Source: an uncultured Bacillota bacterium
Lineage (GTDB): Bacteria > Bacillota > DTU025 > MWDF01
NCBI GenBank assembly: GCA_963823655.1
Contig: CAWGMK010000013.1
Coordinates: 448,001 to 512,000, forward strand
Direction: 5' to 3'
DNA length: 64,000 bases
The position numbers and the translations under genes are program-made. How positions within the stretch are numbered: the first letter of the stretch is position 1; the number at the start of each line of letters is the position of its first letter. The notes beneath the pieces were generated by a model. That model did no database searches. It saw nothing but the letters and a program-made list of their open reading frames with translations, and had not been told where the DNA came from. Positions 26,685 through 43,800 of the stretch are shown here, one piece after another.

Positions 26685-26849
26685 CGGAACCTACCCCCGG
26701 AACATCTTAGTAACGCCCAATTCAAACATCAAAATCAAAATTCTACAAGATTCCCGTAAAGGACAGCCGACTCACAACGGGGCTTTTCAGCGCAGCTATG
26801 CCCGGTCGGGCCGCAGTAATGCAATCACCGGCCGGGCATTAGTAAGGGC

Positions 26850-27187
26850 TTACAATGTGACTATAGTGTAACCTTCGTCAATGTAGCTGGCCATGGGGGA
26901 TGGCCGCTCATATCCCCGTTCAATTTGTAGCCGTTTACCTCAAGGTAATCGTGTGCACCAGTTGCCCTTGAGCATGCTTTGCAGACACAGTCTATCAGGC
27001 CCTCCTCCTTGGCTTTTAGAAGCAGGCTTCCTTTTGCCTCATCCATGTCTTTCAAGGTCTTGGTGGCAGTACCCTCGACAACTATAAGGGCTTCATGCCC
27101 CCCCTTCCTTAATTCCAGCGCGTTAAGGATCACATGCGAAAAGCACATTGTCTCGCCCTTGAAGGCGAAGAATGCGAACTTGCCCAT
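26850..27187 (-). CDS. DsrE/DsrF-like small protein (frameshift near the 3' end)
   Basis: GETMCFSHVILNAL...EGTAT...CVCKACS...MSGHP; corrected end GYTIVTL-TAA. Confidence 0.7.
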
Positions 27188-27336
27188 GATCAGCCCTCCT
27201 TTTATGTAAAAATCGATTGCATGTCGTATTATTGTATAGTTTAATATTTCTGCATTACATGGGATTCACCTGCAAGCGCAAAACGGTCCCTGCAATTGAC
27301 TTAGCCTGCCGTAATGGCAGGACATGAGGAGAAACC

Positions 27337-28146
27337 ATGGGAGAAAATGATGTAATCAGCCTTTCTGCGCAGCCCTGGTCATCGGCCGATGTGGAGTCCA
27401 TGTCAAGGCTGCTCGGAATAGGCGAAGGGGATACGGTCATCGTCCACACCAAGATGTCCTCGATGGGCTGGGTCTGCGGCGGAGCGCAGGCGGTCATCGA
27501 GGGTCTTGTAGCGGCAGTCGGCGAATCCGGAACGCTTGTGCTTCCCGCGCATTCAGGCGGCAACAGCGATCCTTCTTTCTGGAGCAACCCTCCGGTGCCA
27601 GAAGCCTGGTGGGACAGGATACGAGAGACGATGCCCGCATTCGACCCCCGCAAGACTCCGATAAGAGGAGTGGGTTCCGTACCGGAGCTTTTCAGGACAT
27701 GGCCGGGTGCACTTCGCTCGAACCATCCCACCGCATCATTCGCGGCGCTGGGTAAGCAGGCCCTTTTCATTACTTCAGGCCATGAATCGCTCATGGCGTT
27801 CGGCGAGGACTCCTCTCTTGCAAGAGTCTATGAGCTGGACGGCAAGGTCTTGCTGATAGGAGTCGGCCACGACAACAATACTTCCATGCATCTGGGCGAG
27901 TTCAGATCGGGTACCTGCAAGACCATGGTGCAGGGAGCGGCAATCATGAAGGACGGAAGGCGACAATGGGTCAGCTTCGATGAGATCGATATGGATTCGG
28001 ACAGATTTCCCGCTATAGGAGCCGCTTTTGAAGAAGCCGGGGGCATCGTGTCCCGTGGCAAGATATGCCAGGCCGATTGCTTGCTGTTCAGGCAGAGAGC
28101 CATCGTGGACTTCACGGCAAGTTTCCTGCGGGCAATGAAGGAATAG
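27337..28146 (+). CDS. AAC(3)/YokD family N-acetyltransferase
   Basis: IVHTKMSSMGWVCGG, SDPSFWSNPPVP, RSNHPTASF, NTSMHLGE. Confidence 0.9.
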   Translation: MGENDVISLSAQPWSSADVESMSRLLGIGEGDTVIVHTKMSSMGWVCGGAQAVIEGLVAAVGESGTLVLPAHSGGNSDPSFWSNPPVPEAWWDRIRETMPAFDPRKTPIRGVGSVPELFRTWPGALRSNHPTASFAALGKQALFITSGHESLMAFGEDSSLARVYELDGKVLLIGVGHDNNTSMHLGEFRSGTCKTMVQGAAIMKDGRRQWVSFDEIDMDSDRFPAIGAAFEEAGGIVSRGKICQADCLLFRQRAIVDFTASFLRAMKE

Positions 28147-28221
28147 GGCGGCTTTGTGTGGAATTTTCTTTAGGAACGAAGGCTTTCGGGCCCGGACTTA
28201 AGAATAGGTGGATTTGGACCT

Positions 28222-29839
28222 ATGACAGATACGATGCCAGCAAATGCACAGGAGCTTTTAAATCAGGCAGAGGTCCTAAGCCGGACCAGCACAAGCGCGG
28301 CAATCGCGAAGGCCAAGCTCGCCTACTCGGCTGCGCTCGATGCGAACGACCAGCTTACAAGGCTGAAGTCCCTGATAATGATGGGGCGTTGCTCTTTCAT
28401 GTCGGGCCGTACGGGCGATGCCATCAAATGGCTGTTGGAGTGCATCTCGACGGCGGATACCCTAAACATGCCCGAGCAGATGGCGGAGGCTTTCAATCAG
28501 CTTGGAAACACTTACCTGGTAATCAAGGACTACGGCAGGTCCATATCATGCTACCTTGACTCTCTGGATATCATGAAGGACAACGGATTTGAGAGTATGG
28601 AAAGCCGCGTGCTGAACAATATCGGCGCGCTGTACCTTGATCTGGAGGATCTCGACCACGCCGCCGACTACTTCCAGCAATCCTATGAGATGGACGCATC
28701 CACATCCCAGAAATCCGTGATACTCCTTTTGAACCTGGCAAGCATCTACGCCAAGAAAAAGGCCTTCGAGAAGGCCGACTTCTATATGAAGAAGGCACAA
28801 GAGGCCCTTACCGAGCCTGAAGACCTGCTGATGCTGTCCTGGTTCTACCTGACAGACGGCGAGGTGGCCCAGGCGAAAGACGACATAGAGGCCGCCATCA
28901 AGCATTACAAGGCCGCTTTCGATATTTTGAGCAAGACGGGCGACGCCTTCAACGAATGCGACATGAGCATCAGGATAGGCCTGCTGCTGCTCGATGCTGG
29001 CAGGTGCGACGAGGCTCTTGAGGTCCTTCTGCAGACATACGAGAAATGCAACATGTTCAAAGTCCATGAAACCAGCAAGAAGATAGCCGGGCTGATCGCC
29101 AGGTGCTACAGCAATGTTCGCGAGGACGAGAAGGCCCTCAGATTCTATATACTCCAGAGCATGCACACCGAGCAGTCCGAAAAGGAGCACATTGAAAACC
29201 AGAGGAAGAGCGTCCTTTTGCAGGTCCAGCAGCATGAGACCAACCTGGAAAGGCTCAGGCTCAAGCAGCTGAGCGAGGAGCTCATGAGGACCACCGACGA
29301 GCTCAAGGAGGCATATGCCACGCTGGAGAGGCAGGCGATAATCGACTCCCTTACCGGCATCAGGAACAGAAGGTCTATGGATTCGCTGCTTGACTCGACA
29401 TGGAAGCAGTGCCAGGACGAGAGCCTGCCCTTTACTTTGATGCTTGTGGACCTGGACTGTTTCAAGAACTTCAACGACTATTACGGCCATCCGGCCGGCG
29501 ACGAAAACCTAAGGATAATCGCTTCCTGCCTAACCGAGGCCATCGGTGACGAGAGGCTCATCGGCAGGTACGGCGGTGACGAATTCGTCGCCGTACTGCC
29601 CGACGTAAGCGGCGAAGAGGCAAGGAATATCGGCAACAAGATGCTGGATAATGTAAGGTCCAAGAATCAAACACGAGCGCAATGACGCTTCAAGCATACA
29701 GACTGTCACTGTCGGCGCAATATGCCTCGTCCCAAGCCGGGACGATGTCCCAGGTTCGGCCCTGCATATGGCGGATACCGCGCTGTACGACGGCAAAAAA
29801 CAGGGCAAGGACAGGCTGGTCCTCTACTGCAGGGAATAG
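28222..29839 (+). CDS. TPR-repeat diguanylate cyclase (frameshifted near 29670)
   Basis: Several TPRs (NQLGNTY, NNIGALY), coiled coil, DSLTG..NRR, DLDCFK..ND.YGH..GD, RYGGDEF; tail ADTALYDGKKQGKDR in a shifted frame. Confidence 0.88.
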
Positions 29840-29851
29840 GAGATGTAAAGC

Positions 29852-30316
29852 ATGCCCGATTTTATGGGAATTGCCATCGAAGAGGCCAAGGCCGGAGTCC
29901 TGAAGGGGCACGGCGGCCCATTCGGCGCTTGTATAGTAAAGGACGGAAAGCTGATTTCATCGGCGCATAACCAGGTCCTCAGATACAACGACCCCACCTT
30001 GCACGCTGAGATGCAGGCCATAAGCGAAGCTGCCAGAAAGCTGGGCCGCTTCGACCTGTCCGATTGCGAGCTATATACAAGCTGCGAGCCCTGCCCCATG
30101 TGCCTTGGCGCCATATACTGGTCGAGGATCAAGAAGGTCTACTTCGCCGGCACAAGGGACGACGCCGCAGACGCAGGCTTCGACGACAGGAAGTTCTATG
30201 AGGACATGGGAAGCGGCGGCTGCCCCGACGGCGTAGAGCTTAAACAAATCGACAGGGAACGCGCCATGGAGGCGTTCTCCTCATGGAACAGCAAACCGGA
30301 CAGGAAGATATACTAA
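29852..30316 (+). CDS. Nucleoside deaminase (guanine deaminase-like, CDA superfamily)
   Basis: GGPFGA, DPTLHAE, SCEPCPMC, AGFDD. Confidence 0.88.
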   Translation: MPDFMGIAIEEAKAGVLKGHGGPFGACIVKDGKLISSAHNQVLRYNDPTLHAEMQAISEAARKLGRFDLSDCELYTSCEPCPMCLGAIYWSRIKKVYFAGTRDDAADAGFDDRKFYEDMGSGGCPDGVELKQIDRERAMEAFSSWNSKPDRKIY

Positions 30317-30335
30317 GCCGCATCAAGGAGGACAG

Positions 30336-30989
30336 TTGAAGCCGAAAGTCACCATATTCAGCATGATTACGCTCGACGCCGGCTATGTCTCCGGCTTACT
30401 TGACGTGGACTTGTACTATGAGGCCGGCTACGCGCTCGGGGCGGATGCCGTCATGGCAGGCGCCGACAGCATGCTCGAAGGGCTTGCGGGCTTCGGACAG
30501 GCTCCGTGCGATGAGACGCTTCCGGAAGAGAAACGTCACGACTTCAACCTTCCCTGGCTGGTCATAACCGACAGCCGCGCAAGGCTTATGGGCAAGCTGG
30601 GCCACTACAGGAATATGGAGTATGTACGAGACGTCCTGGTCCTGGTCTCAAAGGCGACGCCCAAAGAATATATCGATTACCTTGAGAAGAACTCATATGA
30701 ATACTACGTATCGGGCGATGACAGGTGCGATATGTCAGAAGCCCTAGATCAGCTGAATCTGTATTGCCACATCGAGCATATAAGGGTCGATGCCGTCGGC
30801 AGCCTTGCGGCTTCGCTGCTTAACGAGGGCCTGGCGGATGAGCTATGTGTAATCCTTGCCCCTTACTTGCTGCAATCCCCTTCTCTAAGGGCATTCGATG
30901 GCCTTAATAAAGACATCCGCCTCTTCCCGGTCTCGTCTGGGCCGCTTAGAAACGGCTACTTGATCACTACGTACAAAATAGAAAAGTAG
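30336..30989 (+). CDS. RibD C-terminal/DHFR-like reductase
   Basis: SMITLD, DAVMAGADS, ITDSRAR, LLNEGLADEL. Confidence 0.75.
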   Translation: MKPKVTIFSMITLDAGYVSGLLDVDLYYEAGYALGADAVMAGADSMLEGLAGFGQAPCDETLPEEKRHDFNLPWLVITDSRARLMGKLGHYRNMEYVRDVLVLVSKATPKEYIDYLEKNSYEYYVSGDDRCDMSEALDQLNLYCHIEHIRVDAVGSLAASLLNEGLADELCVILAPYLLQSPSLRAFDGLNKDIRLFPVSSGPLRNGYLITTYKIEK

Positions 30990-31101
30990 CGGAAAGCAAG
31001 CGAAACGGCCCGGAGCATAATCTGCATTCACATGCCGGGCAGTACATTTTTGCGCGCTTCGTTTTGTTTACCTACAATTATTGCCACCTTCGCCGTTCGC
31101 C

Positions 31102-32316
31102 CTATAAGCCTGCCAGGGAGCCGAGGAAATCCTCGCAGATGTCCTTCTTGTCCTCTATTCCTACCGACACTCTTATCAAGCCCTCGCTGATGCCAAGCTT
31201 TAGCCTCTCCTGTTCGCCTAAGCCCCTGTGCGATGTTGACGCCGGGTGGCTCACTGTCGTAGCATAGCTTCCCAGGCTCGGGACGAATGAGGCCATCTTG
31301 AAGCCCGATATGAGCTTGTCCACGGCAGCCCTGCCGCCTTTGAGCTCAAAGCTGAGCATTCCGCCGAAACCGTTCTTAAGAAGCCTGTTTGCCGCGCTTC
31401 CCCGCTTGCGGCCCTCAATTCCGGGATAATATACCTTCTCTACCTTCTCCGACTTCTCAAGTGCCTGGGCAAGCGCTGCGGCGTTCTCGCAGTGCCTGGC
31501 CATCCTAACGCCAAGGGTCCTCATGCCCCTGAGCAACAGCCATGCCTCAAAGGGGGAAAGAACGGGGCCGAAGAGCGTCTTCGCGCTTCTTATGGCGTCA
31601 ATCAGCTGCTTAGAATCTGCCGCCGACTCCCCCACCGATACCGTCCCCGCCATCACGTCATCATGCCCGTTCATATATTTCGTGCAGCTGTGAATGCTTA
31701 TGTCCGCACCTAGTTCAAGCGGCTTCAGAAGCAATGGCGTGGCGAAAGTGTTGTCGACTGCAAGCAATGCGCCCGCGGCATGGGCCAATTCCGCAAGCTT
31801 AGGTATATCGGCCACTTCCATCAGCGGATTCGATATGCACTCGCAAAACAGCAGCCTGGCACCTGGCGCCAGCGCCTTTTCCACCGCCTTGAGGTCGGTG
31901 ATGTCTACGAATTCCGCGCTCACGCCCCGCCTTTTATGCTCGGCAGCCAGCATGCTCCTGGTCGCGCCGTACAATATGGAAGCCGAGACTATCCGCTCGC
32001 CTGGACTTACCGCCCCTTCAAAGGCAATCGCCGTCGCAGCCATGCCGGATGCACATGCTACGCTACCCGAGCTTCCCTCAAGCTCGTCCACGAGCTCTTC
32101 TACCGCCTCAACGCTGGGATTCGCCATCCTCGAATAGACATATCCCCTGTCTTTGCCGGTCCATACGTCGTCAACCTGGTCGAGCCCGCTGAACCTGAAC
32201 ACGGCCGATGCGAAAATCGGCGCTACTTCCGGCTCAGAGGCCGACTTGCCCGACCCTCTTGCCGCGTGTACAACTGCGCTGCCCTCTGAGAGCTTCCCCT
32301 TTTTCATCAGGAACAC
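31102..32316 (-). CDS. Cys/Met metabolism PLP enzyme (methionine gamma-lyase/cystathionine lyase family)
   Basis: YSRMANP, ASGMAA, VDNTFATP, HSCTKYMNGHDD, SLG...HPASTSH, IRVSVGIE. Confidence 0.9.
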   Translation of the reverse strand: MFLMKKGKLSEGSAVVHAARGSGKSASEPEVAPIFASAVFRFSGLDQVDDVWTGKDRGYVYSRMANPSVEAVEELVDELEGSSGSVACASGMAATAIAFEGAVSPGERIVSASILYGATRSMLAAEHKRRGVSAEFVDITDLKAVEKALAPGARLLFCECISNPLMEVADIPKLAELAHAAGALLAVDNTFATPLLLKPLELGADISIHSCTKYMNGHDDVMAGTVSVGESAADSKQLIDAIRSAKTLFGPVLSPFEAWLLLRGMRTLGVRMARHCENAAALAQALEKSEKVEKVYYPGIEGRKRGSAANRLLKNGFGGMLSFELKGGRAAVDKLISGFKMASFVPSLGSYATTVSHPASTSHRGLGEQERLKLGISEGLIRVSVGIEDKKDICEDFLGSLAGL

Positions 32317-32412
32317 CTCGAATCTCAGCTTTGTATGCCTTCTATTGCCCCACCCGCCACTAACCGATAGTATTAGTAATATATTAGCATTCTAACCCAG
32401 GAGGAGGAGCAA

Positions 32413-32949
32413 ATGGCATTAGTCGAGGCGAATTACCGCGATTCGGTGTTGTTCAGGCGCCGCTCGATAAGGAAGTTCAAGGATGAGATGCCGCAGCAAT
32501 GGCAGCTTAATGCCGTTTTAGAGGCTGCGATGTGCACCCAGACCGCCTGTAACCAGATGCCTTTTGAGCTGATGCTGGTAGACGACAGGAAGTTGCTGGA
32601 CAGGCTTCAGGCGGCCCTCCCCTTTGCCAGGCTGAATACAGCGCCGGCAGCGATTTTGGTCATGTCGCAGCCGAACTGGAAAGTAAGGATTCACCCGTGC
32701 GGCATGTTCATTCAGCAGGACCTGGCCGCCGTGAGCCATCAGATCTGCCTTGCGGCCATAGAATTCGGGCTGGGCGCATGCTGGTGCGGCCTGTTCCCTG
32801 TGAAGCTCATGGCATCGGCCGCGGCCAAAGTGCTGGGCATACCGTCCGATGTGATGGTAGTTTCGATAATCCCCATCGGCATTCCGGCCGAGCAGAAGGA
32901 GCCCAATTCGAAGTGGATGCCAGAGAAGCTGCACAGGAACGGTTACTGA
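32413..32949 (+). CDS. Nitroreductase family protein
   Basis: RRSIRKF, NQMP, QDLAA...GLGACWCG; GGAGGAGG RBS. Confidence 0.88.
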   Translation: MALVEANYRDSVLFRRRSIRKFKDEMPQQWQLNAVLEAAMCTQTACNQMPFELMLVDDRKLLDRLQAALPFARLNTAPAAILVMSQPNWKVRIHPCGMFIQQDLAAVSHQICLAAIEFGLGACWCGLFPVKLMASAAAKVLGIPSDVMVVSIIPIGIPAEQKEPNSKWMPEKLHRNGY

Positions 32950-33024
32950 GAACATTGCTGTTAAAGATATTTATGCTCATATGGCAATATGCGGATATGG
33001 GTAAAAATGATAAATTTTTGCAGC

Positions 33025-33053
33025 TTGAAGGATTATCGGTGCCAAATTAGAAT
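33025..33053 (+). promoter_or_regulatory. SigA-type promoter of the putative peptide-signalling operon
   Basis: TTGAAG-17 nt-TAGAAT. Confidence 0.55.
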
Positions 33054-33089
33054 ATAGTATTTGTTATATGTAGCCATTTGGAGGTACGG

Positions 33090-33788
33090 ATGGTGGAGAG
33101 GCTCATGGGCAATGGGCTCGATGAAAAGATGGCAGCCAAGCTCGAAGGGCTGATCGGCCGCATGGCAGGCGTTATCGCCGCCAAAGTGATCACCGACAGC
33201 TCCAGCAGGCCTGTCGAAATCCACGTCCTCACGAACCTCCAGAGGACTCCCAAGCAGGTGGCAAGGGATGTGCAGTCCTGCGCGGCGTCTGCTTGCGGCG
33301 TACAAGTCGACCACAGGATAATCAGCGTTGCGCAAGTAAGCGACGATGCCGTTGGGGCGCCCGGCGTAAGGCTGAAAATCAAGGGTTTGAGCCTCACTCT
33401 GGACGAAAATACGGTTACGATAAAAGTCGGGCTCACCTACAAGGGTTCCCTCTTCGAGGGCTCATCGTCGGTGATGTCCAAGGCGCAGGGCAAATACGCA
33501 GCGGCGTCGCTTGCCTGCGTAAACTGCCTTCACAAGTTCCTCGGAGTGGATTACGTATTCTCCGTAGTCGATGTGCAGAAAACGAAAATTGCGGGCATGG
33601 ACGCCTTTAACGTAGTGCTCAATCACATTTACGACGGCCGCCAGACGCTTCTGACAGGTGTTGCGCTGGTCCAGGACGATGACTATATGGCGGTGATCAA
33701 AGCAACACTGCATTCGGTTAACAGGGTTCTCGACAAAGCGTGGCGAAATGGCAGGCAAGTCGATCAGGAAGCGAACGCAGATCTTTGA
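33090..33788 (+). CDS. Conserved hypothetical cytoplasmic protein
   Basis: GGAGG RBS then ATG 33090; EIHVL...RTPKQVARDVQS...DHRIISVAQ motif; C-terminal ATL..VNR. Confidence 0.8.
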   Translation: MVERLMGNGLDEKMAAKLEGLIGRMAGVIAAKVITDSSSRPVEIHVLTNLQRTPKQVARDVQSCAASACGVQVDHRIISVAQVSDDAVGAPGVRLKIKGLSLTLDENTVTIKVGLTYKGSLFEGSSSVMSKAQGKYAAASLACVNCLHKFLGVDYVFSVVDVQKTKIAGMDAFNVVLNHIYDGRQTLLTGVALVQDDDYMAVIKATLHSVNRVLDKAWRNGRQVDQEANADL

Positions 33789-33870
33789 TAGCCCAATAAA
33801 AGGCCGGACGTAGCGGAGCGTAACAGCCCATCCACTAGCGAAGATGGAGCAATGGAAAGGGGCTGTTCAA

Positions 33871-33963
33871 ATGCGCAAATTAATGGCAATCATGGGCACC
33901 ATACTCGCCTTCGTGCTGGTAGCTGGTGCCAACTGGAAAATATTGCCTCCTCTTACGAAGTAG
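33871..33963 (+). CDS. Unannotated 30-aa signal-peptide-like precursor MRKLMAIMGTILAFVLVAGANWKILPPLTK
   Basis: GAAAGGGG RBS 8 nt before ATG 33871; basic N-region, hydrophobic core, AGA site, polar tail; TAG 33961-33963; shorter than any ORF in the supplied track. Confidence 0.75.
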   Translation: MRKLMAIMGTILAFVLVAGANWKILPPLTK

Positions 33964-34026
33964 ACAGGCAGCCATAATTAGCGGGATCTGTCCGGTCTTG
34001 CGGGCTATCATCATGTGAGGTCCTAG

Positions 34027-35350
34027 ATGTCCTCTTACAGGTTCAGCGACAAGCACTTCAGGTATCTGGTAATCGCCGCAGGAGCTGCGGCGCTTGTTTA
34101 TGTTACACTAACGCAGCCTATCAAGTTCGACTTTGCGAGCTTCGCATTCCTTGCCCTTATGGCAACGCTTGCGGAATCCCAGCCGGTTGTAACCGACAAG
34201 GACAAGACTATATCGGTCGGTTTCGCCTTCGATTTGTGCGCGCTGCTGCTTTACGGGCCTTTGGCGGCGGCATGGGTCGTATTCATATCGAGCATATTCA
34301 GCATAACCCATGTTAAGAACTGGGGCTACCTGCACATTTTCAATACCCCGCCGGATTATCTGCTTTTCAACGCGATGAATCTGGTCCTGAGCATAATTAC
34401 CTGCGGATATGTCTACCAGCGCATGGGCGGCATCTCGCTGGTTTCTCACGGAAATGCCGCAATTCCTAGCATCGGCGCAGTGCTAGGAAGCCTTGGGAAC
34501 CACGTTTTCAGCATGGTAGTGGCCATAATGGCCCACATAATGGTCAATACCTCGATAATCTCTGTGCACATCTCGATTGCGACCGACCAGAAGGCGATGA
34601 TAGCCTGGGCATACAGCTTCCTCTGGTCCGTCTTCAACCTTCTTATCGTCGGGATGATGGGCGTGACCATCGCCGCGGTTTATACAAGCTATGGCCCGCT
34701 GATGGTCATCTTGTTCATGATCCCCCTGTTATTGGCCAGAAACTTCTTCGTACAGAATGTGAAGATGCGCGAGATCTACCTGAACACTATCATGGCCCTC
34801 ACATCCGCAATCGAAGCCAAGGATATCTATACGCGGGGCCATTCCGAGAGGGTGCAGAAGATCAGTGCAATGATCGCAAAGGAGATGCGCCTGCCGACAG
34901 GGCAGCTCGAAATGCTCAGATATGCCGCCATATTGCACGATATCGGCAAAATAGGAATTAGCGAAGCCATTCTGAACAAACCCGCAAGGCTTACCAAGGA
35001 AGAGTACGCGAAGATCATGGAACACCCTGCAATAGGGGCCAAGATAGTCGAGGAAGTGGACTTTCTCAATAGAGCCTCCAAGATAATTAAGAGCCATCAT
35101 GAGTGTTTCGACGGTTCCGGCTACCCTGATGGGATAAAAGGCTCGGACATTCCGCTTGAAATCGCAGATCCTCTCGGTTGCCGACGCATATGATGCAATG
35201 ACCACCGATAGGCCCTACAGGGAGGCATTCACTGATAGAAGCGCGTGGGAGGAGCTGGAGCGCAAATCTGGCACCCAGTTCTCACCTGAGGTTGTTCGTG
35301 CATTCAGGAAGGCAGTGGACAAGAAGCAGGAGATCACCAATGCTTTTTGA
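34027..35350 (+). CDS. Membrane-sensor HD-GYP phosphodiesterase (1-nt frameshift near 35160)
   Basis: About 7-8 hydrophobic N-terminal segments; AIEAKD.YT.GHS, LHDIGKIG, HP, HHECFDGSGYPDG; removing one A from GAAA at 35158-35161 restores IPLE-SQILSVADAYDAMTTDRPYR. Confidence 0.9.
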
Positions 35351-35921
35351 GTCCGTGTTATTCGGCCTTGCGGCAGGTATACTGCTAGGAGGCAGCATAA
35401 AGGAAATCTTCAGGGCGAGCTTCAGGAGGCTGCCCTTGATTTTCATCGCGGCGGCCATCGATATCATCTTATCCTCTGCTTTTGGCGCGAAGGTTGCGTC
35501 ACTGGGCGATTGGGCGCTTATTGCGGCAACCCTTCTTCAGGCGCTGCTGCTAGCCCTGTTCGTAATATCCAATATCGGCATGCCGGCGCTTTGGCTAATA
35601 GGCCTTGGTGGGATCATGAACTCGGCGGCCTCCGCCTTCAACTGGGGCAGGATGCCGATAAGCCCGCAGATCCTCGAAATCGCGCCGGACTCGCCTTACA
35701 CATTGGCATTGCTCGCAGGTAAAGTACACAATTACGCCTTAGCGACGGAGCAGACTAGGTTGCTTTTCCTGTCCGATATAATCAACTTCAGAGGATTTAC
35801 CCTGTATATGATAAGCGCCGGCGACATTGTGACGTCTGCCGGGCTTATAGTCCTTATAATTTCGCTTATGCTGCCTCAAAACAGAAGGCCTGCAAGCTTC
35901 GATGATGGCCATCGTCAATAA
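35340..35921 (+). CDS. DUF5317-like membrane protein
   Basis: ATG overlaps the end of the HD-GYP gene by 11 nt; GG.MN...N.GRMP, L.FLSDII and ISAGD motifs. Confidence 0.75.
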   Translation: MLFESVLFGLAAGILLGGSIKEIFRASFRRLPLIFIAAAIDIILSSAFGAKVASLGDWALIAATLLQALLLALFVISNIGMPALWLIGLGGIMNSAASAFNWGRMPISPQILEIAPDSPYTLALLAGKVHNYALATEQTRLLFLSDIINFRGFTLYMISAGDIVTSAGLIVLIISLMLPQNRRPASFDDGHRQ

Positions 35922-35933
35922 GAAAAGTTCGGA

Positions 35934-37511
35934 CTAGTCTTGCCGCCCGGGCTCACCTTCGGCTAGCTCAATGCCTGATTTCGTAAAGTCTCCATAGAAT
36001 TCGGCTTCCGCCTTGAAAGTTATGGTGAGCTCCCTCACCTTCCCGCCTTTGAAACTGTCCTTTGAACCCATCAACACCAATTCACCAATCGGCCTTGCCG
36101 CCGCCTTTTCAAACAACCTTGCTGCGGCCTCGCTGACAGCTTCGCCTGGCTTCGCGTATGTCCACGGCAGCTCGGCCTTCTGGGCAGCGCCCCTTTTTAC
36201 GACAGCATGCTTTCCCCCTGCGCTGATTATTACCCTCACCTTTATGCGAACCGGCTCATATCTCGCCTGCTCCGATGGGGTATAGTACACCGAACCTACG
36301 AATTCGTCTGGCAGGTATTGCTGCTCTACCCAGCCCCCCGGGAAATCGTGGGGGTATTTGTACCCTATGCCTTTGCCGATCTTCTCCGCGCCCTTGTATC
36401 CTCCGGACTGCAGGTGTGCGGGCACCTGCCCCAGCGGCTTGTTCTTTAGATCCTCGATGGCGGCATCAATCGCCGACACGACGGCGTTGCTCTTCGGGGC
36501 GGTTGCAATGTGCAATGCGGCCTGAGCCAGCGTAATCCTCGCCTCGGGCAATCCGACATGCTCTACTGCATATGCCGCAGACGCTGCTACCATCAGCGCT
36601 GTTGGATCCGCCATACCGACATCCTCGGAAGCGTGGATCAATATCCTTCTTGCTATGAACCTCGGATCCTCGCCGGACTCGATCATCCTCGCAAGGTAAT
36701 GGAGCGCTGCGTCCGGATCCGATCCTCTCATGCTCTTTATGAAGGCCGATATGACATCGTAGTGTATGTCGCCCTGCATGTCATATTTCAAAAGCGTCCT
36801 GCCAAGTATCTCGGCCACCAGCGCCTTCGTCACAAGCGCATCTTCGGCAACGATTGCTGCCATCTCAAGCACATTGAGCGCTATCCTGGCGTCGCCTCCT
36901 GCGTGAAGCGCTATGTAGGCTATTGCCTCCTGCTCGAACCCGATTCCCGAGCCTCCGAGTCCCCTTTCCTCGTCTTTGGCCGCACGCCAAAGCAGAGTCT
37001 CAAGTGAATCGGTGCCTATGGGTTTAAGCATGAAGATCCTCGATCTTGACACCAAGGGAGCTATAATGTCGAAAAATGGGTTCTCGGTGGTAGCGCCGAT
37101 CAGGCAGATTGAGCCGTCCTCAACGGCCGGCAACAGCGCGTCCTGCTGTGACTTGTTGAACCTGTGGATCTCGTCTATGAACACCACGGTGCGCGTGCCC
37201 TGCATAGCCAGCTCATCCCTTGCTGCACCCACGACGCGGCGTATGTCGGCAACGCCCGAGTAAACGGCGTTCAGCCTTTCGAATTTCGAGCTTGTGAGGT
37301 TGGCGATGACTTCGGCAATCGTAGTCTTGCCCGAGCCTGGCGGCCCGTAAAGTACCAATGAGCCCAGCTTGTCGGACTCTATCGCCTTTCTGAGCGGTTT
37401 GCCTTTACCTAGAAGGTGGTCCTGGCCTACGACCTCGTCAAGGCCCCTCGGCCTCATCCTTGCGGCCAAAGGCATCGCCTCTGTACCTGCTTCGAAGAGC
37501 ATGCGGGCCAA
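35934..37511 (-). CDS. rarA: Replication-associated recombination protein A with C-terminal Nudix-like extension
   Basis: PLAARMRP, GPPGSGKT, FIDEIHRFNKSQQD, GATTENP, HYDVISAFIKSMRGSD, YKYPHDF. Confidence 0.93.
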   Translation of the reverse strand: MARMLFEAGTEAMPLAARMRPRGLDEVVGQDHLLGKGKPLRKAIESDKLGSLVLYGPPGSGKTTIAEVIANLTSSKFERLNAVYSGVADIRRVVGAARDELAMQGTRTVVFIDEIHRFNKSQQDALLPAVEDGSICLIGATTENPFFDIIAPLVSRSRIFMLKPIGTDSLETLLWRAAKDEERGLGGSGIGFEQEAIAYIALHAGGDARIALNVLEMAAIVAEDALVTKALVAEILGRTLLKYDMQGDIHYDVISAFIKSMRGSDPDAALHYLARMIESGEDPRFIARRILIHASEDVGMADPTALMVAASAAYAVEHVGLPEARITLAQAALHIATAPKSNAVVSAIDAAIEDLKNKPLGQVPAHLQSGGYKGAEKIGKGIGYKYPHDFPGGWVEQQYLPDEFVGSVYYTPSEQARYEPVRIKVRVIISAGGKHAVVKRGAAQKAELPWTYAKPGEAVSEAAARLFEKAAARPIGELVLMGSKDSFKGGKVRELTITFKAEAEFYGDFTKSGIELAEGEPGRQD

Positions 37512-37539
37512 ACTGCTAACACTCCCCCCGGTATATAAG

Positions 37540-37716
37540 AAGGCCCCGCGGTGCCGTATTGCGGTGTTTTTCTTCCCTGTCCACGACAGGTGGATGCCCC
37601 ACTCCCAGCTTTTTGGGTCCGCCACTTGGCGGCATGCTAGCCACTGTTAGATGAGGGCTTCCTATTCTTTGCTTGTAGGAAGAAAATCCTGTGCAACACG
37701 TACACTACAGGGTCAA
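37540..37716 (-). ncRNA. ssrS: 6S RNA
   Basis: Minus strand GACCCTGTAGTGTACGTG... pairs with ...TACGGCACCGCGGGGCC; contains GGCATCCACCTG typical of Firmicutes 6S; about 175 nt; immediately upstream of rarA, the usual position. Confidence 0.82.
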
Positions 37717-37807
37717 AGCTTCTGCCTTCATAATACACCCTGAGGCTGCATTTGGTAAGGCTTATAAATGATTTGATATCATTACGAACATCAAAACGCG
37801 TACGTTC

Positions 37808-38383
37808 CTAGAGCTTCCTTGAGCCGGGCTTGTATGGAGCCGAGCCCTGCTTGCATAGAGGGCACTCCTCGGCAGGCCACGAGGCCACTTCCAGCTTCAA
37901 GACGCTGTAGAGCGGATAACCCAAGTCCGCCTTGCCGCCGCTGCGGTCAACAAGGCAGGCGATGCCCACAACTTCGCAGCCCATAGCCTTTGCCAGGTCC
38001 GCCACTTCCCTGGAAGAGCCGCCGGTCGTGACGACATCCTCGCATACCAGCACCCTTTCGCCGGGCTTCAGTGAAAAGCCCCTCCTCAGGCTCATCCTGC
38101 CCTCTTCACGCTCCGCGAATATCGCTCTTGACCCCAGCTTCCTTCCGAGCTCATAAGCAAGCGTAATGCCCCCCATGGCCGGCCCTATCGCAACGTCGAT
38201 TTTCCCGTCGGGAAGCTTCGACGCGATGATTTCAGCAAGCTCGGCGCAAAGCCCCGGGTGCTGCATTACAAGTGCGCACTGAAGATACCTGTCGCTGTGC
38301 CTTCCCGAAGTAAGCAGGAAGTGCCCGTTTAGTATCGCGCTGTTGTCTTCGAACGCTTTGAGTACCTGTTTCTCATCCATCAT
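37808..38383 (-). CDS. pyrE: Orotate phosphoribosyltransferase
   Basis: GHFLLTSGRHS, GPAMGG, VCEDVVTTGGS, KPGSR. Confidence 0.95.
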   Translation of the reverse strand: MMDEKQVLKAFEDNSAILNGHFLLTSGRHSDRYLQCALVMQHPGLCAELAEIIASKLPDGKIDVAIGPAMGGITLAYELGRKLGSRAIFAEREEGRMSLRRGFSLKPGERVLVCEDVVTTGGSSREVADLAKAMGCEVVGIACLVDRSGGKADLGYPLYSVLKLEVASWPAEECPLCKQGSAPYKPGSRKL

Positions 38384-39093
38384 AGCCCGGCCTCCATCTC
38401 CTCGATGATCATCGCAAACGCCGCTGCCGGATCCGCTGCCTTGGTTATCGGCCTGCCGACCACTATGTAGTCGGAGCCCGCCGCCATCGCGTCTTTGGGC
38501 GTGAATACTCTCTTCTGGTCGCCCTTCGCGGACCATTCGGGCCTTACTCCCGGTGTTACGAGCCTGAACCCGGCTCCGAACTGCGCCTTCATCGGCTTTA
38601 TCTCGTGCGGGGAGCATACTACTCCGTCCATGCCGCTATCTTTGGCAATCGCGGCAAGCCTCATTGCAGCAGCGGTCGCCGTGTCGTCCGAGAAGCCTAC
38701 CTTCTTTATATCGGCATCATCCAGGCTGGTAAGTATCGTAACGGCTATCAGGCTTGGCTTATTGCGCCCGGCTGAAGCCTCATCCCTCGCCTTCACTGCG
38801 GCTTGGAGCATCGCAGGTCCGCCCGACGCATGGACGTTCATCATGTCCGCGCCGCTTAGAACTGCCTGGCTGACTGCGCCGGCTACTGTCTGGGGTATGT
38901 CGTGGAACTTCAGGTCCAGGAATACTTCCCTTCCCATCTTCTTAAGAGCGCCCACTGCCGCCCCCGCGCTTGCAAGGTACAGCTCAAGGCCCACTTTGAA
39001 ATGCCTGGCCTCCGGCAACGCCGCAACAAGCGCCTCCGCCTCCTGCCATGTTGGGAAATCGAGCGCCACGATCAGCCTGTCCTCTACCCTCAT
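38380..39093 (-). CDS. pyrF: Orotidine-5'-phosphate decarboxylase
   Basis: LIVALD, KVG, FLDLKFHDIPQT, VTPGVRP, VVGRPI. Confidence 0.95.
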   Translation of the reverse strand: MRVEDRLIVALDFPTWQEAEALVAALPEARHFKVGLELYLASAGAAVGALKKMGREVFLDLKFHDIPQTVAGAVSQAVLSGADMMNVHASGGPAMLQAAVKARDEASAGRNKPSLIAVTILTSLDDADIKKVGFSDDTATAAAMRLAAIAKDSGMDGVVCSPHEIKPMKAQFGAGFRLVTPGVRPEWSAKGDQKRVFTPKDAMAAGSDYIVVGRPITKAADPAAAFAMIIEEMEAGL

Positions 39094-40023
39094 TTTGCAC
39101 CGATCCTTCCCGGGTGCGCGGCCCCCGCCGCCTCCCGTATGTTCTTGATACCTTCCGCCTTGCAATAGCCTTCAAGACCTTCGATGATCCTCGGTATGCA
39201 CATAGGGTCCGCCAGCTGCCCTGTCCCAACTGCTACTGCCGTCGCCCCCGCCATTATGAACTCCAGGGCGTCCTCCCAGCTAGGATATCCCGCCAAGGCC
39301 GATAATCGGCACTTTTACCTTTTGCGAAGCCTGCCATACCATCCTGAGCGCTACCGGCTTTATGGCGGGCCCCGACAGCCCTCCGGTCAAGTTGGCAAGC
39401 ACCGGCTTTCCCGTCCTTATGTCTATCTTCATTCCCAACAGGGTATTTATCATGGAAAGCGCGTCTGCGCCCTCGGCCTCGCACGCCAATGCGATTTCAC
39501 AGATATCCGTAACATTGGGCGAAAGCTTGATTATAAGAGGCATTTTCACCGAGCGCCTTACCTCTTTGACAAGAAGGGCAGCGGTTTTGGCCTCTGCGCC
39601 GAAGGAAAGCCCGCCCTCCTTCACATTTGGGCAGGATATGTTTATCTCCAGGGCGTCCGCCGCCCCCGCTTCTTCTATCGCCGTTGCGACTAAAACGTAA
39701 TCTTCAACCGAGGAGCCCGCGACATTCACGATGATGTTAGTATCGATTGCCGCAAGCTTGGGCGCAATCTGCCCTAGGAATGCCTCCAGCCCGGGATTTT
39801 CAAGCCCGATGGCATTAAGCATGCCGGATGCGGTCTCGCAAATCCTCGGCGGAGGGTTGCCGATTCTAGGAAGCGGCGTTACCGCCTTTACCACGACGGC
39901 CCCCATTATGCCGGGATCGAAGAATTCCTGAAAGCAGTCGCCGAAACCGAAGGTGCCCGATGCGCTCATTACAGGGTTCTTCATTATTAGCCCTGCAAGC
40001 TCTGTTTTTAAAGCGTCGCTCAT
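39090..40023 (-). CDS. pyrD: Dihydroorotate dehydrogenase 1B catalytic subunit (frameshift near 39295)
   Basis: [36 protein letters not shown]. Confidence 0.93.
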
Positions 40024-40791
40024 TTAAGCACCTCCTCAGCTTTGAATACCGGGCCGTCGGCGCAGACCTTCAGCCATCCGGCACCCTTCCTCGCCTCATC
40101 GCAGGTGCAGCCGTTGCACGCCCCGACCCCGCATCCCATGATCGTTTCCAGCGAGACCTGCAAGGGTATGTTATGGAAGGCTGAGCAGGGATTTTACTGC
40201 CTTGAGCATCTGTATGGGCCCACATGCGTAAGCAGAATCGAAGCTTGCATGTTCAAGCAGCTTTTGCAGCGGAGCGGTTACGAAACCTGAATCTCCCAGG
40301 CTTCCGTCCTCGGTGGCGATTACGCAGCTTGTCGCAAGCATGTCCGACTCCATTAGGCACAGCTTGTTGCGCGCTCCGGCGACCAACATTGCTTTACCGC
40401 CCTGCCTTTCGATCTCGTCCTTAAGAAAGAGCAGCGGCGCAATCCCGGTGCCACCGCCTATCAATAAACTGCTTCCCACACTTATTTCAAAGCCCTTGCC
40501 GTAAGGGCCTGAGAGGCTCAATAGATCGCCGGCCCGCGTTCCTGCAAGCCACGCGGTCCCCTTGCCAACGACGGCGAACCTCAGCGTAATCAGCCCTTCT
40601 GGCGTGTTTGCGCCGGAGACTCCGAACGGCCTTCTAAGAAGGCTGTCCTTGGCCCCGGATTCGACCATCACGAACTGCCCGGGCAAAGCCGCGCCTGCAA
40701 TCTCCGGGGCATGAAGTACCAGCCTCCTCATGCCTTCGGCGATTTCACACGCCTCTACGACTTGCGCTTCGTCAATCTGCCACTTTGCCAC
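40020..40791 (-). CDS. pyrK: Dihydroorotate dehydrogenase electron transfer subunit (frameshifted)
   Basis: [28 protein letters not shown]; [10 protein letters not shown]...VCADGPVF in a shifted frame. Confidence 0.9.
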
Positions 40792-40803
40792 TGCCCGGAC
40801 CTC

Positions 40804-43800
40804 CTATTGCCTTACTGAGTATTCTTTGAGGGATCTTACTCCGAGAGGGGCTTTGCCGCCCTTCTCCTTTACATGCCCGATGACATCTAGAAGGCCCTTT
40901 GCAGTATCCAGCGAAGTAAGGCAGGGTATGTTGAACTCAACGGCCGCCCTTCTTATCCTGAAGCCGTCTTTCAGGGGCTGCTTGCCCTTAGCCGGCGCGT
41001 TGATTACAAGGCTTACCGTACCTTCCCTGATGAGCTCCAGCACGTCCTTGCCGCCGGATCCTATCTTGCCCACCTCGAAGACCTTAAGGCCCCTTTCTGT
41101 CAAAAACTTCGCTGTTCCGGAAGTAGCCCAGACCGAGAAGCCCATCTCTGCGTAACCGCGGATGATCGGCAGAGCCTCCTCCTTGTCCTTGTCGGCAAGA
41201 GTGGCAAGTATCGATCCGGTTTCGGGTATCTTGTAGCCCGCCCCCATGAAGGCCTTCATCAGCGCCTTCTTGAAATCCTTGTCGAGGCCTATGACCTCGC
41301 CTGTGGATTTCATCTCGGGGCCCAAAGACACTTCCACGTCCGTGAGCTTGTTGAAGGAGAACACTGGCATCTTAACAGCGTAAACCCCTGCTTCCTCCCA
41401 CAGCCCGCCCTTGTAGCCCAGCTGCTGGAGCGTGCTTCCAAGGGAAATCGCCGTGGCCAGCTTCACCATCGGAATGCCCGTGACCTTGCTCATGAAGGGC
41501 ACCGTCCGGCTCGCCCTGGGGTTGACCTCGATTATGTAGACCTTGCCCTTGTGGATTACGTATTGAACGTTCATGAGCCCTTTAACCTTCAGGGCCCGGG
41601 CAAGCCTCACGGTTGTGCGCACGATTTCGTCCTTCTCCTCTTGCAGCAGGTTTGAGGTAGGATAGATCGCCGTGCTGTCGCCTGAGTGCACGCCTGCGCG
41701 CTCCTGGTGTTCCATTATGCCGGGTATAAGCACTTCGACCCCGTCGCTCACCGCGTCGACCTCGACTTCCCTGCCAATGAGGTATCTGTCCACAAGCACG
41801 GGATGGTCATTGGACACTTTCACGGCCTCTGTCAGGTATTCCTCCAGGTCCTGCTCGTTGAAGACTATCTCCATGGCCCTGCCGCCGAGCACATAAGACG
41901 GCCTGACAAGCACCGGGAAGCCCAGCTGGGCAGCTATGCCCTTCGCCTCCGAGCGGGATCTGGCCATGCGCCCCGCAGGCCTTGCGAAACCGAGCTCCTC
42001 TAGCAGCTCGTCGAACTTCTCCCTGTCCTCGGCCGCGTCAATGTCCTCCACGCTAGTGCCCAGTATCTCAACACCGTGCGCCGCAAGAGGGCCTGCGAGG
42101 TTTATCGCCGTCTGCCCTCCGAACTGCACCATCACGCCCATGGGCTTCTCGTTGTCGATTATATCCAGGACATTCTCCAGCGTAAGGGGCTCGAAATAGA
42201 GCCTGTCGGATGTGTCCGGGTCAGTTGAGACCGTCTCCGGGTTGGAGTTGATGATTATCGACTCATAACCCATGCCCTTCAGTGATACCGAAGCTTGCAC
42301 CGAGCAGTAGTCGAACTCCACCCCCTGCCCGATCCTTATCGGGCCGGAGCCCAGCACGACTACCTTCTTCCTGTCTGTGGGCTTTGCCTCATTCGTCTCG
42401 CCGTAAGCTGAGTAGAAATAGGGGGTCCTTGCGTCGAACTCTCCGGCGCAGGTGTCCACCATGTGGTAGCACGGGGCAAGCCCGCGGCGCAGCCTCTGCT
42501 GCCTGAGCTCGTCTTCCGTGCAGTTTAGAAGCTTTGAGAGCTGGTAGTCCGAGAAGCCGCACTTCTTGGCCTTCAGCCAATCCTCCTGCGTCCACTTGTG
42601 TTTCGTGGCGAGCACGCCCTCAAGCCAGACTATATGCTCGATGTTGTCCAGGAAGAAAACATCTATTCTAGTGGCCTTGTGTATCTGCTCGATACTTACT
42701 CCGCGCCTTAAGGCCTCCGCGATGGCGAACATCCTCTCGTCGTCGCCGCGGTCCATCTTCTCCATCAGCTGCTGGAGGCTCATCTTCTCCATCTCGGGCA
42801 CTAGAAGCCCCGTGAAGCCCGCCTCAAGCGAGCGTACGGCCTTAAGGAGTGCAGCCGGGAAGTTCCTGCCGAGCGCCATTACTTCGCCTGTGGCTTTCAT
42901 CTGCGAACCCAGCTTCCTGCCCGCCCCCCTGAACTTGTCGAATGGCCAGCGCGGGACCTTCGCCACAACGTAGTCGACCGACGGCTCGAACATGCAGGAG
43001 GTGTTTCCCGTTACGTCGTTTACTATCTCGTCTAGACAGAGCCCGAGCGCTATCTTCGACGCCACCCTGGCTATCGGGTATCCTGTCGCCTTTGAGGCCA
43101 AAGCGGAAGACCTGCTGACCCTGGGGTTAACCTCGATGAGGTAATAGGCCGCGCTGTCGGGGTCGAGCGCATACTGTATGTTGCAACCGCCCTCTATCTT
43201 CAATGCCCTGATTATCCTTATAGCCGAGCTCCTTAGCATCTGATAGTCCCGGTCAGAGAGGGTCTGGGTGGGGGCGACCACTATGCTATCGCCTGTATGT
43301 ATGCCTACGGGGTCCACGTTTTCCATCGAGCAGACCACGATGCAGTTGTCCTTGGAGTCCCTGATTACCTCGAACTCTATCTCCTTCCAGCCCGCGACGC
43401 TCCTTTCGATGAGAAGCTGCTTGTTCATGGAGTATATCAGGCCTTTGGACGCGACTTGCACCAATTCCTCGGGGTTGGACGCGAAACCGCCGCCTGTGCC
43501 GCCCAGCGTATATCCGGGGCGCACTATGAGCGGATAGCCAAGCCTCTCGGCAAGCTCAAGCGCACCTTCCACGCTGTCAACTATGCCGCTGCCCGGCACA
43601 GGCTCTCCGAGCTGCTGCATGGTTTCTTTGAAAAGCTCCCTGTCCTCGGCCCTTTGTATCGAATCTACCGGCGTGCCTAATAGCCTCACTCCGTATTTCG
43701 CCAGCACCCCGCGCCGGTCCAGCTCGACAGCCATATTTAGCCCCACCTGGCCTCCCAGCGTGGGCAGGAACCCGTCGGGCCTCTCCTTCTCGATGATCTC

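Follow-up and report, generated by a model that had tools for sequence, protein, structure and literature searches.

What function could reside in a 30-codon open reading frame (ORF) lying, without annotation, directly upstream of a gene for a membrane-bound HD-GYP phosphodiesterase? The question is raised by a 64,000-nucleotide stretch of DNA from an uncultured Bacillota bacterium (assembly GCA_963823655.1, 2.3 Mb in 13 contigs), which is called the window in the following and corresponds to positions 448,001 to 512,000 of contig 13 (CAWGMK010000013.1, forward strand). A preliminary description made from the letters of this stretch had pointed to the ORF as essentially a signal peptide whose short tail would be released as a signal. 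Here, the ORF is found to belong to a four-gene module that occurs in numerous families of the phylum and consists of a gene termed g236, the microprotein gene, the gene for a transmembrane (TM) HD-GYP protein and a DUF5317 gene. Moreover, we lean towards the view that the microprotein is dedicated to the MASE9-like sensor of the HD-GYP protein, either as its partner or as a genetically encoded ligand. All coordinates refer to the window (Table 1).

Coding status of the small ORF

The ORF extends from an ATG at 33871 to a TAG at 33961–33963 and encodes the cysteine-free 30-aa peptide MRKLMAIMGTILAFVLVAGANWKILPPLTK. As 124 ORFs of at least 20 aa are present in 8 kb of sequence, size alone is uninformative, and it is conservation that identifies the small ORF as a gene. 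It is found at the same position, 3' of the same 236-aa gene, and intact in all seven genomes of the genus (the window and six other species); a loss in close relatives, which the preliminary description had considered, was not observed. With a profile of the seven peptides, those of the congeners are recovered at E values of about 1e-21 as a single copy per genome, and nothing credible was obtained from the other 14 genomes of the order (best E 0.06). In the codon alignment of the seven genomes, the variable columns at codon positions 1, 2 and 3 number 7, 2 and 23, respectively, and Nei-Gojobori dN/dS ratios between clades amount to 0.04–0.18 at dS values of 0.6–2.2. Residues A13 to L28 are invariant across the seven congeners, the n-region reads MRK or MRR in all of them, and peptide identity (82–87%) exceeds that of g236 (65–72%) and of the HD-GYP protein (about 76%). 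Hence, the ORF is genuinely protein-coding, as had been proposed at the outset, and the well-spaced ribosome-binding site noted on that occasion is likewise confirmed. An in-frame ATG at 33844, the start picked by gene callers, yields a 39-aa form (P0001); it is the 30-aa form that is common to all seven congeners, not the 39-aa one.

As an observation in its own right, the small ORF has 19 proline codons in the seven genomes together, each of which is CCT (33946–33951 in the window and the same codons in the six congeners), the CCT share among proline codons in eight genes of the window being 20 of 133. The resulting CCTCCT, which has an anti-Shine-Dalgarno-like look, may reflect a constraint at the nucleotide level.

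Distribution of the microprotein family

Judged by sequence, the small ORF is the genus-specific form of a wider family of 24- to 33-aa microproteins with a basic N-end, about 14 hydrophobic residues, the motif L-[AV]-G-[GA]-[AGS] and then x-aromatic-K/R. In an alignment of 23 peptides (that of the window, three from congeners and 19 from distant genomes), L-[AV]-G-[GA]-A is followed by x-aromatic-K/R/W, to which the genus of the window adds ILPPL(TK/PH/PK). The window peptide can be aligned through LVAGANWK, and its gene is placed between g236 and the TM-HD-GYP gene. In all 19 distant peptides of the alignment, K/R is found near the N-end (first 3 to 9 residues). Distant peptides have (A/V)-G-G-(A/G/S) after the hydrophobic core, with 4–6 residues following LAGGA. 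No cysteine occurs after the hydrophobic core in any aligned peptide, congener or distant, ruling out a lipoprotein signal peptide, in agreement with the early remark that the lipobox cysteine is replaced. The signal-peptide-like anatomy described at the same time was found again, with a basic n-region, a core of hydrophobic residues and, at −3 and −1, small residues (here A-G-A before N21). The exclusion of an AgrD-type precursor also stands, the tail in the window containing neither Cys nor Ser and the neighbours being g236, HD-GYP and DUF5317 genes and not AgrB.

Distant homologues of g236 share 22–35% identity, and in 18 of 23 loci an HD-GYP homologue follows on the same strand after a gap of 220–360 nt. 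A small hydrophobic ORF is present in each of these 18 gaps (loci L009–L031). Eight of the encoded peptides resemble that of the window, for example, MKRLFKALASLVALALAGGAHYWWW and MKTTFIRVLIALACLILAGGATYKW, and ten, all from the window's own order, represent a second type (group B), VKPVKKFALAGFVAAIMTLLMSVMAFADTFLVK, with A-F-A before D/E; in L021–L031, this type has 33 aa, reads (M/V)KPVKKFALAGFVAAIMTLLMSVMAFADTFLVK and occupies the same g236/HD-GYP gap. The type of peptide switches with the type of sensor, as group B accompanies sensors whose TM part is not alignable to that of the window. In g236, peptide and sensor alike, the closer relatives of the window's genus are found in other families of the phylum and not in its own order.

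With a g236 profile, family members were detected in 70 genomes of an even, phylum-wide sample of 151. Among 27 new loci (L063–L089), an HD-GYP gene stands beside g236 in 21, eight of these modules being from genomes already counted among L009–L031, and the peptide is present in 21 of 21 (20 found by script, that of L075 separately). In L068, the peptide is present and the contig stops before the HD-GYP position. A small ORF was found in none of five g236 loci without HD-GYP. Matches to the sensor domain alone were obtained in 34 of the 151 genomes, 31 of the 34 adjoining g236; further modules possess the peptide in 13 of 13 cases, and it also occurs in G157 beside a divergent g236. At the two TM-HD-GYP copies lacking g236 (G108 and the second copy in G024), no peptide was found. 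Overall, the peptide is present in every g236/HD-GYP module examined and absent where either partner is missing.

Comparisons of close relatives gave 25 non-synonymous codon changes, of which 17 lie within the 4–5-residue tail while LAGGA is frozen, a count over pairs that are not independent and that excludes the misaligned pair L088/L089. Family members are nearly invisible in protein collections: only one of ten peptides has a record among about 15 billion proteins, as a "hypothetical protein" of Thermovenabulum gondwanense, and the longer in-frame stretch 33814–33960 corresponds to only three clusters among 5.8 billion. Searches with the peptide gave no credible family in Pfam and NCBIfam and no lead in the ESM Atlas (best score 0.86, unnamed clusters). 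A scan with the genus-specific pattern through the genomes of 185,579 species returned the six congeners only, and a pattern scan of JGI metagenomes gave, among the matches listed, at least two loci, identical to known ones.

Predicted complex with the HD-GYP sensor

The HD-GYP gene starts 63 nt 3' of the small ORF and encodes 388 aa, in which about 240 hydrophobic residues precede the HD_5/HD-GYP domain. An AlphaFold2 (AF2) model of residues 1–245 (predicted local distance difference test score, pLDDT, of 92.8) shows six long helices, two short ones (65–76 and 78–90) and two small beta-hairpins. For MASE9, eight TM segments with an intramembrane hairpin have been described and a ligand binding within the membrane has been proposed (Galperin and Chou, section 12; bioRxiv 10.1101/2021.11.05.467447), which is an independent point in favour of an intramembrane ligand. 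The six long helices plus two short ones forming a hairpin in the sensor of the window are similar to this architecture as given there. Unlike MASE9, the window sensor (residues 1–245) does not match the Pfam profile (PF20972) at E values up to 10, and an associated small ORF is not mentioned in the cited sections of that article; the relative P0022 reaches 19.9 bits with the profile, below the cut-off of 24.3. In a Foldseek search with the sensor model (34027–34761), the best structures in the PDB are S components of energy-coupling factor (ECF) transporters, RibU, BioY, ThiT and NikM, to which the likeness is weak (TMt 0.56–0.62, E 0.015–0.1).

When sensor residues 1–245 (46-row alignment) were modelled together with the peptide (23-row alignment), an interaction prediction score from aligned errors (ipSAE) of 0.63 was obtained (0.63, 0.65 and 0.61 in three runs), compared to 0.01 for the best of three controls. 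Among 80 solved complexes, 58 attain the ipSAE mark, as do 2 out of 110 mismatched pairs, a calibration that is rough only, as custom alignments were used here. The runs share at least 82% of contacts, and the partner pLDDT is 65. On the peptide side, the predicted interface comprises residues 15 and 17–28, that is, the conserved stretch AGANWKILPPL, across the proposed cleavage site, and on the sensor side it includes F114 and N115, the latter being the sole invariant column of the sensor alignment. Contacts are predicted between N21 of the peptide and sensor positions 50 and 63–66 as well as between K23 and position 89. The peptide is thereby predicted to bind in an intramembrane pocket of the sensor. 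As the HD domain must be cytoplasmic, the positions contacted by N21 and K23 would place this pocket in the cytoplasmic half of the sensor, with the short sensor helices probably forming a re-entrant hairpin from the cytoplasmic side; K/R-rich sensor loops in relatives (51–64 and 91–108) agree with this location. Going by contact lists, not coordinates, the modelled peptide appears to run from residue 21 to 26 towards the cytoplasm. A relation between K/R in the tail and an acidic residue at sensor position 50 emerges as one suggestive case (L072) and not as a rule.

The contacted stretch spans the site at which the peptide might be processed, and this bears directly on the released signal of the preliminary description. 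In a fuller form of that reading, a Sec-type pre-peptide would be cut by signal peptidase I after AGA (AGGA or AFA in relatives), and its tail, NWKILPPLTK here and 4–6 residues elsewhere, would serve outside the cell in autocrine or quorum signalling, with the neighbouring HD-GYP sensor as a possible receptor. The n-h-c build with small residues at −1 and −3 in all three peptide types and the h-region of about 14 residues in the wider family fit such a precursor, as do the location next to a membrane sensor gene and the aromatic/basic tails, which differ between genera, are the fastest-evolving part within genera and resemble pheromone pherotypes. Short hydrophobic pheromone precursors encoded beside their receptor are known from the SHP/Rgg, ComS-XIP and Phr/Rap systems; SHP and XIP precursors are similarly short and have basic N-ends and hydrophobic or WW-containing C-ends. 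With all these systems, the family shares the very small size, the basic N-end, the hydrophobic core and a variable, aromatic-rich C-terminal part. Unlike in these systems, neither an Rgg/RRNPP-type receptor nor a peptide exporter or a processing protease of, for example, the AgrB type is encoded in the module or nearby. An RRNPP/Rgg receptor would be an adjacent cytoplasmic protein with TPR-like repeats, usually with a helix-turn-helix domain, whereas the fold of g236 is like the LeuA regulatory domain and the candidate receptor is a membrane enzyme. In addition, it is the intact junction that is docked in the model, on the presumed cytoplasmic half of this enzyme, the interface covering the cut site (residues 17–20) beside the K/R-rich loops. 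Besides, LAGGA is near-invariant over many genera, beyond the need of signal peptidase, and tails of four residues are unusually short for Sec export. Release of the tail is consequently rated as rather unlikely. From the early claim that the tail is a recognized signal, the fast evolution and the docking of this part on the neighbouring sensor in the model are retained, while its extracellular nature is disfavoured.

RNA elements around the small ORF

Conservation of the 90 nt 5' of the start codon exceeds that of the synonymous sites of the ORF. The small ORF is enclosed by a long-range helix with 19 pairs between the arms, in which compensatory GC/AU changes occur at four pairs, among them columns 25/249 (GC:4, AU:3) and 35/240 (GC:5, AU:2), and several pairs are G-U, including columns 28/246 and 34/241. 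Both features favour pairing at the RNA level over an inverted repeat in the DNA. In 24 of 31 family loci, a perfect stem of at least 9 bp with differing sequence is found in the same arrangement, the 31 loci leaving out three congeners whose AGA form was missed by the search pattern. This count was used in place of RNAduplex z-scores on long flanks, which were uninformative.

The Shine-Dalgarno (SD) sequence of the small ORF is engaged in an anti-SD helix of seven pairs, all invariant in the seven genomes and thus conserved without variation to test covariation. A leader hairpin competes with this helix for C33828–C33829. Hairpins with a UAGCG(G/A)A loop and a varying stem sequence, ending 18–34 nt before the start codon, were found in 27 of 31 loci. 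Their stems have at least 6 bp in 22 of 31 loci versus 14.5% of shuffled controls and at least 7 bp in 14 of 31 versus 6%; this stem search replaced an analysis by MAFFT and RNAalifold, which gave no structure for the leader hairpin, the stems being out of register. The loop element is repeated: within 170 nt 5' of the small ORF, AGCG[GA]A amounts to 35 copies summed over 18 loci, at least one copy being present in 17 of 18, at a chance expectation that we estimate at about 0.08 per locus. In the leader of the window (33761–33870) and in loci L063–L104, repeated (G)AGCGGA(G)CGG units are seen in nearly all lineages, the last one lying in the loop of the covarying hairpin.

The leader could be the binding site of an RNA-binding protein, for which CsrA-like readers of GGA motifs provide an analogy. 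No Rfam family matches the leader, be it that of the window or those of 19 distant loci, and no riboswitch was matched either; it may represent a new cis-regulatory element. We infer that translation of the peptide is tightly, probably factor-dependently, controlled and is coupled to expression of the HD-GYP gene.

Such a structured RNA would also suit a cis-acting leader ORF, where it is translation that matters and not the peptide, with a ribosome at the stop codon opening the long-range helix and thereby enabling read-through or translation of the HD-GYP gene. The conserved, covarying closing helix, the sequestered SD and the structured leader are in favour of it. The same holds for the 3' arm, which begins 3–17 nt after the stop in most distant loci and in the window ends 6 nt before the HD-GYP SD, and for T-rich runs behind this arm in several loci (for example, L063, L065, L074, L093, and L099). 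On the other hand, the 3' arm in the window begins 27 nt after the stop and a T-run was not found there, and the amino acid pattern is kept across the phylum while codons drift, indicating purifying selection on the peptide. In addition, hydrophobicity is the conserved trait and not tunnel-contacting residues, 24–30 aa are too short for a force-sensing arrest peptide, and the complex prediction indicates a function of the peptide itself. As the leader mechanism can coexist with a sensor-binding peptide, only the version with an irrelevant peptide is a true competitor, and this version appears improbable. Two related ideas were considered separately. An arrest peptide acting by its PP motif was rejected, the PP tail being genus-specific and 24–30 aa being unable to leave the exit tunnel before termination. 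A terminator formed with the T-run after the 3' arm would concern several AT-rich lineages only, is absent in the genus of the window and is kept as speculation.

Sequestration of the SD together with pairing between the sequences on either side of the ORF is also reminiscent of type I toxins, since the hok and aapA1 mRNAs are silenced by such folding, and a hydrophobic 30-aa product resembles these toxins in size and character. At variance with them, neither a promoter-like site on the antisense strand nor a terminator was found in a consensus scan of 32900–34300, and the 3' flank, the expected seat of an antisense promoter, is the least conserved part. In addition, the gene is present in a single copy per genome, in strict sense-strand operon synteny with HD-GYP over many families, and the peptide is missing whenever HD-GYP or g236 is missing, so that a toxin-like membrane peptide is very improbable here. 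Hardly credible, finally, is an invertible DNA segment with an incidental ORF, as the inverted repeats (9 + 8 bp flanking about 180 bp, and a perfect 23-nt repeat in G005) tolerate G-U pairs on the plus strand and enclose an interior under coding constraint in one and the same orientation in 7/7 congeners and all distant modules, and no recombinase gene is among the ORFs read in 26000–42000; inversion joints were detected in neither DNA nor RNA contigs, in which minor forms are invisible. The remaining probability belongs to a membrane peptide without relation to the sensor or to explanations outside those discussed here.

Transcription

The only sigma-70-like promoter match in 32900–34300 lies just 5' of g236. 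Near the small ORF, no promoter- or terminator-like site was found on either strand by this consensus scan, which is no proof of absence. Two contigs from RNA libraries (33077–33879 and 33689–33918) bridge g236 into the small ORF, and a third one covers 33884–33962 and then continues like the relative G005. These contigs are compatible with co-transcription of g236 and the small ORF, and the start of one of them at 33077, close to the promoter match, is a weak hint in favour of this promoter.

Further genes and features of the locus

In six of six congeners, the order metC (minus strand), nitroreductase, g236, small ORF, HD-GYP, DUF5317, and rarA (minus strand) is kept. The nitroreductase neighbour had suggested a ribosomally synthesized and post-translationally modified peptide, an idea that was dropped because the nitroreductase is not part of the wider module.

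Table 1. Positions of the microprotein gene and associated features in the window.
Feature	Coordinates	Strand	Remarks
Sigma-70-like promoter match	33025..33053	+	just 5' of g236; only one in 32900–34300
g236	33078..33788	+	likely start ATG 33090, giving 232 aa; cytoplasmic; AF2 pLDDT 82
Long-range helix, 5' arm	33786..33809	+	TGATAGCCC ... GGCCGGAC; starts at g236 stop codon
AGCGGA repeat unit	33812..33817	+	AGCGAA copies at 33770–33775 and 33837–33842
Anti-SD segment ACAGCCC	33823..33829	+	pairs with GGGCTGT 33860–33866; minimum free energy and consensus folds
Leader hairpin CCATC / GATGG	33828..33847	+	loop UAGCGAA; equivalents across family loci
SD AAAGGGG of microprotein gene	33856..33862	+	8 nt 5' of ATG; invariant in 7/7 genomes
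Microprotein gene	33871..33963	+	30 aa: MRK, hydrophobic core, AGA, NWKILPPLTK; congener conservation and family alignment
Long-range helix, 3' arm	33990..34010	+	GTCCGGTC ... GGGCTATCA; ends 6 nt 5' of HD-GYP SD
TM (MASE9-like) HD-GYP phosphodiesterase gene	34027..35193	+	Pfam HD_5 at 2.2e-25
DUF5317 membrane protein gene	35292..35921	+	last of module; Pfam 8.9e-25

For g236, no Pfam or NCBIfam family was found and a sequence search against the PDB was without significant match. Its model consists of one alpha-beta-beta-alpha unit and two subsequent beta-beta-beta-alpha units. The latter resemble the leucine/isoleucine-binding regulatory domain of LeuA/citramalate synthase (structural matches 3hps_B, E 6e-6, and 3f6h_A, TMt 0.65, E 4e-4), whereas the likeness to proteins with double-stranded RNA-binding domains is weaker (TM <0.2). 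On the basis of this fold, a cytoplasmic ligand-sensing role is plausible. In five distant loci (L063, L066, L073, L074, and L083), a match to the cspA thermoregulator is located 5' of g236, presumably because a gene for a cold-shock protein recurs at this place.

Near 35159, the reading frame of the HD-GYP gene is broken, resulting in an ORF stopping at 388 aa compared to 440 aa in relatives, and the conserved C-terminal sequence continues in another frame (35100–35350). One contig from a DNA run has one base fewer at 35159, which would restore the frame; the frameshift is due either to an error in the assembly or to variation between strains.

DUF5317 follows directly 3' of HD-GYP in six of six congeners and in five of five distant genomes tested. 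It was matched in the control genomes of Thermotoga maritima and Thermus thermophilus, too, and bioRxiv 10.1101/2021.11.05.467447 names TM1467 of T. maritima as the founding member of the MASE9-HD-GYP proteins; hence, the module, and perhaps the peptide as well, may reach beyond the phylum.

Two further observations concern the surroundings. A 6S RNA is found at 37539–37716 on the minus strand (Rfam RF00013, 71.4 bits) between rarA and the pyr genes. In a TPR-GGDEF protein encoded at 28222–29685 on the plus strand, the GGDEF match covers the profile only up to position 110 of 161, where the ORF stops, and this protein may be truncated or frameshifted.

Discussion

If the microprotein is the partner or ligand of the MASE9-like sensor, its conserved C-terminal part, i.e., the small-residue AG(G)A turn and, after it, one polar, one aromatic and one basic residue, with the ILPPL tail added to it in the genus of the window, would dock in an intramembrane pocket lined by the most conserved sensor residues (F114, N115, and the E50 region) and so set or gate phosphodiesterase activity. 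The g236 protein, with its fold like that of an amino-acid-binding regulatory domain, would probably feed a signal into the same complex. Tight control in cis appears to be exerted by sequestration of the SD and by the leader with its AGCGGA repeats, one of them presented in a hairpin loop, while the long-range helix would close off the ORF, its 3' arm abutting the ribosome-binding site of HD-GYP, and thereby couple expression of peptide and enzyme.

Several points weigh against this proposal. The docking is a prediction, and the replacement partners in the controls were unrelated natural 30-mers and not TM or hydrophobic helices, which bears on specificity versus any hydrophobic helix. The model implies an N-out orientation of the peptide, whereas the two to three positive charges at the N-end would, by the positive-inside rule, favour N-in. 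In the wider family, the core has only about 14 residues, nearer to the h-region of a signal peptide than to a membrane anchor, and none of the three peptide types has lost the small −1/−3 residues that cleavage by signal peptidase would demand. Finally, the HD-GYP gene is frameshifted in the assembly of the window, and the RNA-library contigs are no proof of transcription.

A more far-reaching version can be put forward tentatively: MASE9-like HD-GYP proteins throughout the phylum would have peptide ligands, one 24- to 33-aa gene per sensor, with the fast-evolving tail fitting the pocket and a structured leader of a novel kind (AGCGGA repeats, one copy presented in a loop, and a "split hairpin" around the ORF) gating expression, the leader possibly being read by an RNA-binding factor or by g236 itself.

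In searches of the literature for DUF5317, which gave no paper at all, for MASE9 and for the wider topic, no report of such a peptide was found, supplements including the MASE9 Figure S5 not being covered. The nearest conceptual relatives are small membrane proteins tuning sensor kinases and a group of 58-aa proteins from Clostridioides difficile, neither of them homologous. Among the former, MgrB and SafA act on PhoQ, the shared trait being a single small hydrophobic peptide that would tune a signalling enzyme by binding to its membrane part. Here, the target is an HD-GYP phosphodiesterase of cyclic diguanylate (c-di-GMP) and not a histidine kinase, a sequence relation is lacking, and the peptide has 24–30 aa and is encoded by the operon of its putative target, immediately before it, as one of four genes in a conserved module. 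The C. difficile CD1980.2 family is described in PMC13724677 as multicopy 58-aa proteins encoded downstream of class I c-di-GMP riboswitches and without homologues outside C. difficile. Both families consist of small membrane-associated proteins, partly unannotated, with a link to c-di-GMP signalling that is a predicted one in the present case; unlike CD1980.2, the family described here is without a riboswitch match, occurs in another genomic context and is not homologous.

Annotation has thus overlooked a conserved component of a four-gene signalling module. A conserved, co-encoded peptide with a predicted place in the MASE9-like pocket makes the question of which ligands the MASE-type sensors of c-di-GMP enzymes bind directly testable. 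Should the more far-reaching version be true, a MASE-type sensor would for the first time have a candidate ligand, and a peptide would be linked directly to c-di-GMP, with cell-to-cell signalling being possible if the tail is released.

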